From: Escherichia coli | GTDB taxonomy: Bacteria > Pseudomonadota > Gammaproteobacteria > Enterobacterales > Enterobacteriaceae | DNA: 64,000 nt | Direction: 5' to 3' (one strand) | NCBI RefSeq assembly: GCF_030013595.1 | Contig: NZ_CP122768.1 | Shown here: positions 3,395 to 12,609 of the stretch, piece by piece | How the letters are laid out: each line of letters begins with the position of its first letter | Numbering within the stretch: the stretch's first letter is position 1 | Made by a program: the position numbers and the translations under genes | Notes under the pieces: generated by a model | Told to the model about the DNA's origin: nothing | The model's input: only the letters and a program-made list of their open reading frames with translations | The model's database searches: none

Positions 3395-3479
3395 ACTTTC
3401 TCCTTAGCCACTTGTGAAATTTATCGATTCATCCAAATGATATAAGTCTGCGTGGTGCCGTCAAGCCAGTGAGTAAGAT

Positions 3480-3653
3480 TTAAAACAGTGAAAACAACAG
3501 CGCCACCGGGAAACTCATCGGCCATGTTGCCCCCACCAGAAAGGCGCTTAAGAAACGGATGCGTTTCTTATCGTGAGAAAGAAACCAGGTGATAAGAAAT
3601 GCGATTGCTGCCATAACCGCATAAAAAACAAGCATGTGTTGATAGAGAGACAT
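3480..3653 (-). CDS. ortT: small membrane orphan toxin OrtT (YdcX)
   Basis: ORF 3480..3728; trimmed to MSLYQHMLVFYAV... (57 aa, two TM segments) as in recalled OrtT. Confidence 0.7.
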   Translation of the reverse strand: MSLYQHMLVFYAVMAAIAFLITWFLSHDKKRIRFLSAFLVGATWPMSFPVALLFSLF

Positions 3654-4343
3654 GTACGGGCGTCCAGCCAGATGAATAAAACGCGCGCAAATATGCGTCA
3701 TTTTTTGATGTGCATCAAGTTTTTTCACCAGTTTGAGAAAAAATCATCAACAGCAACTTGCCCTTATCCATCTTCAGAATAAGTATTATTGCGGATTTTC
3801 TTAACCCGTACTATACACATAGGGGCAATGATAAAAGGTGGCAAAAATGAATGTTTCCAGTAGAACCGTAGTACTGATAAATGTCTTTGCTGCTGTTGGT
3901 TTGTTTACTCTTATCTCTATGAGATTTGGCTGGTTTATTTGATGTAGTGATTTTGCACGCAGCACGTACTGTCAGAGAAATCAGTGCTCTGACAGTACGC
4001 AAGATCATCTCATACTCTCCAGGTTTACAACATTATCCTTAATATTTACTTCTTTTTCCTGACATCTACATTGAAATAAGTAGAAAACATCCCCCTCCTG
4101 TCGTCTATACAGACAGCTTACTGATTCAAAGGGAACCTTGTTTTCACATTTTTCTATCATCAATACTTTAGACGCGCGGGAGTCTATAAATGCTTTATAC
4201 TTTCAGGGAATAAAGTAAATATAAAAAGATGGCGTAAAGTATATGCATGGCAGGATGATTGCAACCTCCTTGATGACGCTGTCCCATTGAAATTGCAAAC
4301 CCCGCACTGGTTATCTTGCCCATTTATCATGCAGAACAGATAA

Positions 4344-5153
4344 TTATAGGTCTCTAAATATCTCAGAAAGATTGAATTTTTTATAGTCCATCTCTTGAAT
4401 ATTTCCATTTGATATCAATCGATTCATCTCTTCAACAAAATAATTTATATCATCACATTTGTTATTATCCGGAAGATCTGAGTAATTATAATTCCACCAC
4501 TTTATTCTCAACAATTCATCAATAACATTTGAATCAAATCTAAATCTGATTATTTTTGCTGGAACTCCTGCAACTATGGCATATGGGGGCACATCTTTGG
4601 TAACAACGGAATTGGCAGCAATAACAGCACCATCACCTATTGCGATGCCACCTTTCAGTACAACATCATTTCCTATCCAGACATCATTTCCTATAATCGG
4701 ATTTTCAGGTTTGGTAATGAATGGTTTCAATGTCCAGCTACGTTCAAACTCACTCTTAGCAAACTTATCAAATTCACCGTTATAAGTCATCATGTGAGTA
4801 GTAAAACGATTCAAAGGATGATTTCCACCCATTATTTTTACATTTGATGCAATACTACAAAATCGACCTATATGTATATTCCCTGTAAAATGACAGGTCG
4901 GGAATGAAAAAGCGCCGACACTGGAGAAATTTTTTACAGGCATTGTTGAATATTCTTCAGCAATAACATTATCTTCAATTGTTATCTTGTCACCTTTTGA
5001 GAAAAGAAATAAATTTCTTTCTTTATACGACTTCTTCCCCTTATGATTTAAAAAGATTTTATTATCCATACAAAACTCAAAGTGTTTTTTCGCCCACCTG
5101 AAGGTAAGGGTTTTATTTTTATCTTCCGTGAATTTATACAATTGAACTTTCAT
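4344..5153 (-). CDS. hexapeptide-repeat xenobiotic acetyltransferase, Vat/XAT-like (streptogramin A / chloramphenicol acetyltransferase family)
   Basis: 269 aa; C-terminal left-handed beta-helix repeats IGNDVWIGNDVVLKGGIAIGDGAVIAANSVVTKDVPPYAIVAGVPAKIIRFRF followed by LLRIKWWNYN, closely resembling the Vat family signature; very AT-rich codon usage unlike flanking core genes. Confidence 0.7.
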   Translation of the reverse strand: MKVQLYKFTEDKNKTLTFRWAKKHFEFCMDNKIFLNHKGKKSYKERNLFLFSKGDKITIEDNVIAEEYSTMPVKNFSSVGAFSFPTCHFTGNIHIGRFCSIASNVKIMGGNHPLNRFTTHMMTYNGEFDKFAKSEFERSWTLKPFITKPENPIIGNDVWIGNDVVLKGGIAIGDGAVIAANSVVTKDVPPYAIVAGVPAKIIRFRFDSNVIDELLRIKWWNYNYSDLPDNNKCDDINYFVEEMNRLISNGNIQEMDYKKFNLSEIFRDL

Positions 5154-5375
5154 TGTTAATACTTCTACTTATAAATTATTAGGTTAATAACGATACTCTA
5201 AAGCCTTATGCGAATCAACTATGACAGGATGAAAAATCACCAACATACATTTAGATCATAATAACTGCCTAATTTTTCCGCTAGTTATTAATGTAATCAT
5301 TCTGATACTTAATCACCATTACACTCAGAACCTAAAACGATAGTGGCCGCCCTATAACAGCCACTAACATTTAAC

Positions 5376-6800
5376 TTAATGTTTAACCATGACGTGGCGG
5401 ACGACGGTGTAATCCTCCAGCCCATAAAGTGACATATCCTTGCCGTAACCAGAAAGTTTCTGCCCACCGTGCGGCATTTCACTTACCAGCATGAAATGGG
5501 TATTGACCCAGGTACAACCATATTGTAGCCGTGCGCTGACGCGATGCGCCCTGCCCACATCTTTCGTCCATACCGAAGATGCAAGTCCGTACTGGCTGTC
5601 ATTCGCCCAGTTCACCATCTGTTCTTCGTTGTCGAAGAGCGTAACACTCACTACTGGACCAAATACCTCTTTTTGCACGATGGCATCATCCTGTAATGCG
5701 CCAGCCAGCAGCGTCGGCGCATAGTAATAGCCATTACCCTTGCGCTTTTCACCGCCAGTGATCACTTTGATGTGCCCTGTCGCTTTCGCCTCTTCTACCG
5801 CCTTGCTGACGCGTTCGAGATGCGCCAGCGAACTTAAAGGTCCAAGCTCCGTAGAGTCGTCATCCGGCGCACCCGATTTTAACGTTGCCACTGCAGCACC
5901 AAGTTTTTCCACCAGCGTATCGTAAATGCCTTTTTGCGCATAGATCCGACAAGCCGCTGTACAATCCTGTCCGGCATTGTAATAGCCAAAAGTACGTACA
6001 CCTTCGACCACCGCTTCAATATCCGCATCATCAAAAACTATCACTGGCGCTTTGCCACCAAGTTCCATATGAGTACGCTTTATGGACGGCGCGGTATGGC
6101 TGATGATGTGTTCCCCAGTGGCGATAGAGCCCGTCAGCGACACCATCCGCACTTTGGGATGACCGGTCAGCGGATCGCCCACCGTTTTGCCTCTGCCAAA
6201 CAGTACATTAATCACGCCAGCCGGGAAGATATCTTTCGCCAGCTCTGCCAACTTCAACGCTGTCAGCGGGGTAATTTCTGATGGTTTAAGCACTACGCAG
6301 TTCCCTGCCGCCAGCGCCGGAGCCAGTTTCCACGCAGCCATCATCAGCGGATAATTCCACGGTGCGATAGAAGCCACGACCCCCAACGGATCGCGACGGA
6401 TCATCGAAGTATGACCTTCAAGATATTCACCTGCCGCCAGACCATTCAGGCAGCGAGCTGCTCCGGCGAAAAAGCGAAAGACATCGACAATCGCCGGGAT
6501 TTCATCATTGAACGCACTATGCAGCGGTTTGCCACAGTTACGGGACTCCAGTTCGGCTAAAACCTGACCATTTTCTTCGATAACATCAGCCAGTTTCAGC
6601 AGGCATTCCGCACGCGCTTTCGGCGTGGTTTGCCCCCATTCGGCAAATGCTGCATCTGCCGCGCGAACAGCAGCATCCACCTGTTCTGCGGATGCCTCGG
6701 CAATCTCTAGTAAAACGTCCCCCGTTGCCGGATTATAGACAGGCTGTTTTTCCCCTTCGCCGCTAACCAGTTCTCCGTTAATCAGTAACTTATGTTGCAT
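5376..6800 (-). CDS. patD: gamma-aminobutyraldehyde dehydrogenase PatD (YdcW)
   Basis: 474 aa aldehyde dehydrogenase; N-terminus [27 protein letters not shown] matches recalled PatD. Confidence 0.9.
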
Positions 6801-12567: not shown

Positions 12568-12609
12568 CCCTAATATAATGCCCCCACAATAACACGAGGG
12601 GGTACAACA

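Follow-up and report, generated by a model that had tools for sequence, protein, structure and literature searches.

Organization of the yncL–patD locus

The window analysed here, a stretch of 64,000 nucleotides of Escherichia coli DNA (contig NZ_CP122768.1), carries between the core genes yncL and patD an AT-rich islet that encodes a predicted acetyltransferase. The coding sequence (4344..5153, minus strand) starts with an ATG and runs for 269 codons in the open reading frame (ORF) list of the window, and its 269-aa product matches the Pfam Hexapep model (PF00132) with 48.2 bits, against a cut-off of 27. A sequence-only reading of this DNA had described, at 3729–5375 and between ortT and patD, an AT-rich accessory interval with a hexapeptide acetyltransferase of this length and without mobility genes. 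The ORF, the composition and the lack of mobility genes were borne out, while the limits of the interval had to be redrawn. On the left the islet is bordered by yncL (3847..3942, plus strand; MNVSSRTVVLINVFAAVGLFTLISMRFGWFI), a core gene for a small membrane protein of 31 aa, and by a perfect 13-bp inverted repeat (3965..3999), the core bidirectional terminator that follows yncL. On the right stands patD (5376..6800, minus strand), coding for aminobutyraldehyde dehydrogenase, whose 3' end is the insertion point. The true neighbours of the insert are therefore yncL and patD, and of the originally delimited interval an accessory islet lies inside, yncL and its hairpin being core.

Windowed GC content is 0.28–0.38 across about 3750–5400, compared with 0.51–0.58 in patD and the ydc genes. 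Segment 4049–5375 has a GC content of 0.338 and the coding sequence one of 0.326 (0.278 at third codon positions); on the whole, the inserted DNA is ~34% GC and the flanks of the islet ~53%. Neither a transposase nor an integrase was found in the interval, in the ORF list or in the RefSeq annotation of an identical locus, that of E. coli HCP5S3_I2 (pig faeces, UK), which shows 100% identity with the window over 3400–5700. The gene order annotated there is ortT, yncL, 'CatB-related O-acetyltransferase' (WP_000867994.1) and patD; the acetyltransferase gene is real and already annotated, only under a generic family name. A scan of the whole window with Rfam returned nothing at the gathering score.

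Boundaries of the insert and junction with patD

Insert boundaries were obtained by aligning the window with two genomes in which the site is empty, 88COLEC and O157:H7 F8798. The DNA absent from both amounts to 1,337 bp (4049..5385, or equivalently 4038–5374), the insertion point being ambiguous by ~11 bp because the decamer TTAATRTTTA, made of the patD stop and last codons, stands at each end of the insert. The decamer belongs to a pair of imperfect 20-nt direct repeats, identical at 16 of 20 positions, at 4029–4048 (AACATTATCCTTAATATTTA) and 5366–5385 (AACATTTAACTTAATGTTTA). The right copy holds the functional stop and last codons of patD. Since the left copy encodes stop-Tyr-Lys in place of the stop-His-Lys of the patD end, it is best read, on sequence, as a decayed duplicate of the patD stop, last codons and 3' untranslated region. 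Part of the similarity may nevertheless be due to chance in AT-rich DNA, because a third copy of the 20-mer, an 80% match, lies within the coding sequence at 4965–4984.

A further difference was found just outside the repeats. Six alleles were compared at the 9-bp block 4019..4027: the four that are occupied or hold a remnant have CCAGGTTTA, and the two empty ones have TACGATCTG. The block differs throughout between the two states, yet the sequence to its left is nearly the same, a pattern that a simple gain or loss of DNA between the flanking repeats fails to explain.

In the empty alleles patD runs on into the yncL hairpin (3965–3999), which both genes share. In the window, a hairpin followed by a T-run is borne by the islet itself directly after the patD stop (5341..5366, minus strand, read from 5366 to 5341), with a predicted free energy of -19.7 kcal/mol and a z-score of -4.0. 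It is likely a substitute patD terminator, predicted to shield the acetyltransferase gene from read-through.

The region upstream of the acetyltransferase gene (5154..5340, minus strand) contains a weak sigma-70-like site, TTTAGA-16-AATAAT (5202 to 5175), identified by consensus match only, and ~50 bp (about 5188–5238) that are conserved at the orthologous Citrobacter locus. Neither a strong promoter nor a Shine-Dalgarno sequence for the gene was evident in the upstream sequence. Compared with the common ~95% allele, the allele of the window carries a 13-bp insertion, GATCATAATAACT, at 5249–5261, and this insertion upstream of the gene might alter its expression. The 295 bp at the other end of the islet (4049..4343), 3' of the gene, are non-coding, with only short spurious-looking ORFs. 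When the two non-coding parts were compared by tblastx and blastn with all fetched loci, only the ~50-bp upstream match in Citrobacter was retrieved, and the 295-bp tail had no homologue in any orthologous locus fetched; the idea that it is the remnant of a second gene seen elsewhere was dropped, as these searches found no relative.

Distribution and age of the islet in E. coli

Distribution was surveyed in 5,426 complete E. coli genomes. The flanks of the locus were matched in 5,415 and the islet in 1,158 (21%), the remaining 79% being without it, so that the accessory nature of the DNA held when the locus was compared across genomes, and a core gene of ordinary composition, present in all E. 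coli, is not what was found (21% of genomes, 0.338 GC). Islet matches were chromosomal in 1,162 of 1,164 cases. Wherever annotation was inspected the islet lay between yncL and patD, and yncL was annotated in every genome examined, occupied or empty. Three allele classes could be distinguished: 180 genomes at least 99% identical to the window, 955 at ~95.3%, including the enterohaemorrhagic E. coli (EHEC) O111:H- 11128 and O103:H2 (strain 129), and 23 at 90–95%. Flanks at least 99% identical were also found in 180 genomes, and among those listed no empty-site genome exceeded 98.4%; the window-type haplotype thus seems to be always occupied.

The coding sequences of the window allele and of the common one differ with a synonymous divergence (dS) of 0.10 and a non-synonymous divergence (dN) of 0.012 (dN/dS 0.12); against the Citrobacter orthologue dN/dS is 0.075, with dS saturated. 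These ratios indicate that the acetyltransferase is under purifying selection. For the same genome pair patD has a dS of 0.109, and since the islet dS equals that of the adjacent patD, the islet predates the split of the haplotypes. Judged from this divergence it is old in E. coli and no recent import; of the horizontal acquisition proposed in the sequence-only reading, the foreign origin is upheld by composition and a recent date is not (dS 0.10 in the islet, 0.11 in patD). Presence and absence also segregate on near-identical backgrounds, through loss or recombination, because patD of the occupied strain 204446 differs from that of the empty 88COLEC by a single synonymous change.

Among 39 sampled full-coverage genomes the ORF was intact and annotated full-length in 36, and IS1 insertions were present in the remaining three. 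IS1 was observed in the gene or adjoining it in strains KE40, DXMF6-3R and TB354. In strain cM2a an IS1-associated deletion has removed the acetyltransferase gene: an IS1 stands in its place, and what is left of the islet is ~195 bp on the left and ~165 bp on the right. Strain 2018-166 carries an 18-bp in-frame tandem duplication, ACATCATTTCCTATCCAG (window ~4663–4694), which adds one hexapeptide turn of the GNDVWI type and leads to a 275-aa product; the window has the 14-nt motif of the duplication site twice, 18 nt apart.

Outside E. coli, a scan of genome representatives retrieved Citrobacter, a 'Raoultella' metagenome-assembled genome (MAG), Enterobacter sp. Ag1 and a mis-binned E. coli contig; none of the representatives of other Escherichia species carried the islet. 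The mis-binned contig, 1.6 kb long and 95.7% identical to the E. coli islet, is binned with a 'Collinsella sp.' MAG, the GTDB representative of its species. In a plasmid collection searched in DNA and protein modes, no true plasmid with the gene was found. The sole close match, NZ_CP141089.1, is an E. coli chromosome of 4.9 Mb that PLSDB classes as a plasmid, and the PLSDB predictions from RGI and AMRFinderPlus list nothing under the gene. Deposited phage genomes gave only core matches of at most 42%, mostly Vat genes of Streptococcus suis phages, and a protein scan of IMG/VR viral contigs only core matches of at most 48%. The PADLOC-DB defence models returned no family at E <= 1, and PHROGs only phrog_16087, of unknown function.

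Sequence and fold of the predicted acetyltransferase

An AlphaFold2 model built from 65 homologues reached a mean confidence (pLDDT) of 91.7. Foldseek placed VatA, CatB and VatD on top with probability 1.00 over ~190 columns and a target-normalised TM-score of ~0.6, and the best matches among sequences of solved structures were VatD (E 2.5e-29), VatA, type-B chloramphenicol acetyltransferases, ApmA and PaXAT, covering only residues ~60–230. The best solved relatives are thus Vat and CatB, and the assignment to the XAT class made from the sequence holds. The closeness of the match to the Vat/XAT signature was overstated: the relation stands at family level, and identity is only ~34–38% over ~170–200 residues.

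Every NCBIfam match falls below its curated cut-off. The best was TIGR03308, with 131.6 bits against 201.65, followed by the Vat model NF000311 (125.5/300), CatB NF000490 (105.7/350) and ApmA NF000084 (81/550, with core coverage only); the allele-specific Vat models gave 92–113 bits for cut-offs of 400–475, Vat(I) reaching 113 of 415. LacA (59.7/347) and Maa (52.9/314) matched only residues 153–203.

The putative catalytic residue, His112, aligns with His82 of VatD (His87 of VatA, His79 of PaXAT) and is invariant in the 65 homologues, as are G96, D157-V158-W159 and P198. In other respects the protein departs from the Vat and CatB pattern. The motif GxYSYY is replaced by EEYSTMP, with Thr70 at the position of the second Tyr as placed by sequence alignment; the family motif is E-x-Y-S-x-M-P and the position equivalent to Thr70 varies among homologues. 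In characterised enzymes this Tyr (VatA Tyr42, CatB Tyr30, ApmA Tyr102) serves in transition-state stabilisation or in substrate binding (PMC7885111, PMC8096840). Compared with Vat and CatB, the E. coli protein has ~55 extra N-terminal residues with the conserved pattern FRW..KH..F....IF (N-extension, residues ~1–58), a 2-residue deletion before the catalytic His, a longer loop after it, and ~25–35 extra C-terminal residues (C-extension, ~230–269). No signal-peptide-like or long hydrophobic segment was apparent in the N-terminal sequence by eye, no predictor being used. The gene product is an intact and selected acetyltransferase with XAT fold and catalytic His, and by curated criteria it is neither a Vat, a CatB, an ApmA, a LacA nor a Maa.

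A clade with a sialic acid O-acetyltransferase

Full-length homologues with 70–79% identity were found in Citrobacter, Cedecea/Enterobacter sp. Ag1, the 'Raoultella' MAG and, as a partial sequence, Salmonella; those of Providencia, Kluyvera, Pectobacterium, Dickeya, Rahnella and Brenneria are 47–56% identical, and hundreds of proteins of 250–390 aa with 35–45% identity are spread over many phyla. Every enterobacterial copy examined is AT-rich (33–37% GC), regardless of host. Among more distant relatives, the Campylobacter lari protein is 40% identical over residues 41–267. P0272, the orthologue in C. jejuni, has 276 aa and 1,560 members in the database, and its gene lies in the order cgtA, glycosyltransferase family 2 (GT2), cst (CST-I), neuB, neuC, neuA, P0272, GT2 and GT9. 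That slot is the one of orf11, the sialic acid acetyltransferase gene of class A/B lipooligosaccharide (LOS) loci (PMC2174954). As recounted in PMC8319020 and PMC3513307, Orf11 was shown biochemically to use acetyl-CoA for the O-9 acetylation of sialic acid that is terminal and bound to an oligosaccharide (Houliston et al. 2006, J Biol Chem 281:11480).

In BLASTP against the E. coli protein, bit scores decrease from Providencia (300), Kluyvera (291), Pectobacterium (261) and Dickeya (246) to Brochothrix (174), C. lari (169) and C. jejuni Orf11 (140), and then to a Pasteurella Vat-family protein (112), VatD (111) and two CatB proteins (107 and 103). A neighbour-joining tree was built on 252 columns, with Orf11 represented by its C. 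lari orthologue (60% identical to C. jejuni P0272). The clade containing the E. coli protein excluded VatD, the Vat-family protein and both CatB proteins in 100 of 100 bootstraps, while branching within the clade was star-like and poorly resolved in this distance-based tree. Traits common to the clade are the C-terminal extension, EEY(S/C)xx in place of GxYSYY and the 2-residue deletion before the catalytic His. On sequence, the E. coli protein belongs to a clade of its own kind, of which a single member has been characterised biochemically, an enzyme that acetylates an oligosaccharide of the cell surface. Membership of the Vat/XAT resistance family is not supported by the NF000311 and NF000490 scores, Thr70 and the separate clade with Orf11; a better homology to sugar O-acetyltransferases, which the sequence-only reading had named as the opposite outcome, was found in part, the sialate enzyme Orf11, nearest among the relatives with known biochemistry, scoring 140 bits against 111 for VatD and 107 for CatB.

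Gene neighbourhoods of the relatives

Genomic contexts were examined in a convenience sample of 14 loci, and more than half of the clade members sampled belong to glycan loci or occupy the position of lysogenic-conversion genes in prophages. In the first group, the C. jejuni and C. lari copies are within the LOS locus; that of Pectobacterium brasiliense (50%) stands in the waa cluster for the lipopolysaccharide (LPS) core, flanked by GT9, GT4, GT8, GT8, GT2 ... WaaA, CoaD, GT4, MutM; that of Alteromonas (41%) lies between polysaccharide pyruvyl transferase, GT4 and RmlA; and that of Brochothrix (41%) is upstream of GtfA/GtfB, near a KxYKxGKxW protein. In the second, the Kluyvera copy (53%) follows directly the tail-fibre and tail-fibre-assembly genes of a P2-like prophage, and the Providencia copy (56%) is in a prophage, between a tail-fibre gene with a GT52 glycosyltransferase and defence genes with an integrase. 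A further copy on a mobile element is that of Dickeya (49%), in a primase/terminase island. In Providencia rettgeri prophages (loci L011–L014, 4785–7721) the 56% orthologue forms a conserved three-gene module with a divergent GT52 gene and one for an unannotated 250-aa protein, between the tail-fibre gene and variable defence cargo (DarTG; reverse transcriptase and ATPase; SIR2/Mrr); this is a candidate lysogenic-conversion module.

The remaining copies stand alone in core DNA, and no two of them share a locus. They are those of E. coli, Citrobacter, Cedecea, Rahnella, Vibrio and another enteric bacterium, where the gene sits between ybhL and ybhQ. The closest orthologues (70–79%; Citrobacter, Cedecea and the same enteric bacterium) are single-gene AT-rich islets at different loci, the Citrobacter copy adjoining nucleoside/sugar uptake genes (PNP_UDP_1, MFS, Tsx). 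That the gene recurs in several enterobacterial genera, each time alone in an AT-rich islet and at another core locus, is of some interest.

No resistance gene was found next to a clade member among the sampled loci. Four loci were excluded as contexts of the clade: L029 and L042, both polysaccharide loci, as their proteins score about equally against all reference groups, and L033 and L035, as their products are true Vat-family proteins, 58–62% identical to the Pasteurella Vat-family protein. The gene in L035 (6470–7246), from a Burkholderiales MAG, adjoins one for a VanX-like D-Ala-D-Ala dipeptidase, and that in L033 (6684–7841), from Polaribacter, adjoins a tyrosine integrase gene.

Proposed function and alternatives

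Our preferred interpretation, to which we give about an even chance, is that the islet encodes a stand-alone glycan O-acetyltransferase with an envelope acceptor, possibly left from a decayed mobile element. The protein would be a cytoplasmic, probably trimeric, acetyl-CoA-dependent O-acetyltransferase with the left-handed beta-helix of the XAT-like class. By analogy with the family, His112, on a protruding loop, would act as the general base on the acceptor hydroxyl, with the acceptor held at the subunit interface and acetyl-CoA arriving along the helix. Phylogeny and neighbourhoods point to an envelope-glycan sugar as the most likely acceptor, whether in the LPS core, an O-unit or another lipid-linked oligosaccharide; it would be modified at the cytoplasmic face before export, as has been shown for C. 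jejuni Orf11 on the terminal sialic acid of LOS. Such a non-stoichiometric O-acetylation of the surface could alter recognition by phages or antibodies. As for the origin, the gene may have been the cargo of a mobile element, since relatives are found as morons beside prophage tail-fibre genes. An early lineage of E. coli would have received it at the 3' end of patD, with the patD end restored and a new terminator provided; mobility functions would then have been lost, and the islet later inherited, moved by recombination and repeatedly lost.

Several points weigh against this interpretation. No gene for a partner glycosyltransferase, for sugar synthesis or for export lies alongside the acetyltransferase gene in E. 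coli, Citrobacter, Cedecea, Rahnella, Vibrio or the other enteric bacterium, and the main weakness of the interpretation is that the solitary E. coli gene and its closest orthologues suit a small-molecule acceptor equally well, a stand-alone position being also typical of small-molecule detoxifying acetyltransferases. The clade is star-like, the E. coli protein is no specific sister of Orf11 and identity between the two is only 38–39%. The neighbourhoods come from a convenience sample of 14 loci, and we know of no O-acetylated E. coli envelope structure that tracks the acetyltransferase gene. The mobile-element origin draws on analogy and on a short imperfect repeat that may partly be due to chance, and neither the deposited phage genomes nor the IMG/VR contigs contained a close relative.

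If envelope glycans are indeed the target, a 0.8-kb gene on its own would diversify antigens and phage receptors from strain to strain in ~21% of E. coli, including O111 and O103 EHEC, and in-silico serotyping would miss the modification, the gene being outside the classical O-antigen, core and capsule loci. The islet would also be an example of cargo that survives its vehicle, one gene remaining in an islet that has mended the end of its target gene.

The sequence-only reading had favoured a cryptic antibiotic-modifying enzyme, and an XAT enzyme acting on streptogramin A, chloramphenicol or another small molecule with a hydroxyl or amine is an unlikely but serious alternative. The XAT fold, the solved structures nearest to it (VatD, VatA, CatB) and the conserved catalytic His agree with it, as does the self-sufficient single-gene arrangement in E. 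coli and the closest orthologues, and ApmA provides a precedent of an XAT-class enzyme with an extra N-terminal domain that gained new antibiotic substrates (PMC7885111). Other findings weigh against this proposal. The protein failed every curated resistance model (Vat, Vat(I), CatB and ApmA, with the scores given above), it has the family-variable Thr70 for the key Tyr and no counterpart of CatB Pro8 and Gly11, and it falls outside the Vat and CatB group in all bootstraps. True plasmid carriers are lacking in the plasmid collection, the lone close match being the misfiled 4.9-Mb chromosome with no resistance prediction under the gene, and the genuine Vat-family genes encountered here (L033, L035) occur in resistance- or mobility-type contexts, the clade of the E. 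coli protein in glycan and prophage ones. E. coli is intrinsically insensitive to streptogramins, and selection for Vat function in this species is therefore unlikely. For surveillance, names such as 'CatB-related' or 'antibiotic acetyltransferase' are no evidence of chloramphenicol or streptogramin resistance; the database name mismatches the likely role, in a clade with one characterised member.

Somewhat more doubtful is an enzyme for free sugars or metabolites. In the manner of LacA or Maa it would act on a cytoplasmic sugar that is toxic or cannot be metabolised, detoxifying it or blocking its metabolism; the acceptor could be sialic acid in free form or a different nonulosonic or keto-sugar acid. 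E. coli takes up and catabolises host sialic acids, O-acetylated forms included (cf. the NanS entries in PMC8319020), and this proposal would fit the solitary gene without pathway partners in six taxa, the clade affinity with a sialate O-acetyltransferase and the Citrobacter copy beside PNP_UDP_1, MFS and Tsx. However, the LacA and Maa scores are far under their cut-offs, the relatives adjacent to tail fibres or within the waa cluster point to polymer-bound acceptors, and Orf11 uses oligosaccharide-bound and not free sialic acid (PMC3513307).

We regard as improbable a more specific form of the antibiotic proposal, an uncatalogued drug-modifying acetyltransferase that would owe a new acceptor specificity to its N- and C-terminal extensions, in an emergence like that of ApmA; if true, about one-fifth of E. 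coli, non-O157 EHEC among them, would have a silent drug-modifier in the chromosome, which IS1, an element seen to insert at this locus, could mobilise. Finally, a functionless relic of an old insertion that decays and persists by hitch-hiking would agree with the 79% of genomes that do without the islet, with the IS1 insertions and the one IS1-associated deletion in several strains, with the 18-bp in-frame duplication in one strain and with the lack of an evident strong promoter or Shine-Dalgarno sequence, but is very hard to reconcile with an ORF intact in 36 of 39 sampled full-coverage genomes, a dN/dS of 0.12 within E. coli and 0.075 against Citrobacter, catalytic and structural residues that are all conserved, and two deeply diverged alleles that are both intact.

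A prophage elsewhere in the window

A prophage of ~35.8 kb and ~42% GC occupies positions 12575–48412 of the window. It is missing from a genome otherwise ~99.9% identical on both sides, and its junctions, which overlap by 15 bp, fall within hicB, the gene for the antitoxin of HicAB. Strain PSJ-22 has a relative of this prophage (89% coverage, 93.8% identity) in ycdX, with genes for a serine-type 'recombinase family protein', tail tip, tail fibre, capsid, portal and terminase. Only 12 of the 5,426 genomes hold at least 80% of window 12400–37000. A link between the islet and this prophage (12.6–48.4 kb) was considered and rejected, given ~12 genomes with the prophage against 1,158 with the islet, and a genome with an identical islet that lacks the prophage.

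Comparison with known systems

Of the characterised acetyltransferases, NeuO, the prophage-encoded polysialic acid O-acetyltransferase of E. coli K1 (3JQY), resembles the protein only in the hexapeptide core (E 3e-10, residues 149–204). It is not of the XAT type and has phase-variable heptanucleotide repeats that the islet gene lacks.

ApmA, an aminocyclitol N-acetyltransferase (7JM0; 274 aa), is an XAT-class enzyme and, like the E. coli protein, has an extra N-terminal region, which in ApmA reshapes the acceptor pocket (PMC7885111). The two N-terminal regions do not align, however, the Foldseek TM-score is ~0.4 and ApmA keeps Tyr102.

With CatB and PaXAT (1XAT/2XAT, 6MFK, 3EEV) the protein shares the fold, the trimeric XAT architecture and the catalytic His, at 28–33% identity in structural alignments, but it lacks the N-terminal FESPFKG with Pro8 and Gly11, Tyr30, Ser32 and the YSYYSG motif; of the chloramphenicol-site residues Pro8, Gly11, Tyr30, Ser32 and His79, only the His is present.

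The Vat streptogramin A O-acetyltransferases (VatD, 1KHR; VatA, 4HUR) have in common with it the XAT beta-helix, the protruding loop with the catalytic His and the C-terminal WW helix, with VatD at E 2.5e-29 by sequence and ~2e-11 by Foldseek. They differ in that the E. coli protein has YSTM for YSYY, Thr70 replacing the oxyanion-stabilising Tyr (VatA Tyr42, VatD Tyr37), belongs to a separate clade, and is encoded in an islet at a chromosomal core locus and not on a plasmid.

Orf11 differs from the E. coli protein in genetic setting, its gene being embedded after cst-neuB-neuC-neuA and the E. coli one solitary between yncL and patD, with no sialic-acid synthesis or transfer genes seen in the window. 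The N-terminal 60 residues also align poorly, and the tree shows no specific sister relation. Nonetheless, Orf11 falls in the same clade as the E. coli protein, apart from Vat and CatB in 100 of 100 bootstraps, and is of similar length (276 and 269 aa), with 38–39% identity over residues 66–269 (140 bits). The two proteins share the C-terminal extension after the WW helix, the EEYxx motif and the HPxxR(F/I)(T/S)T catalytic loop, in an alignment that reaches query residues 267–269.

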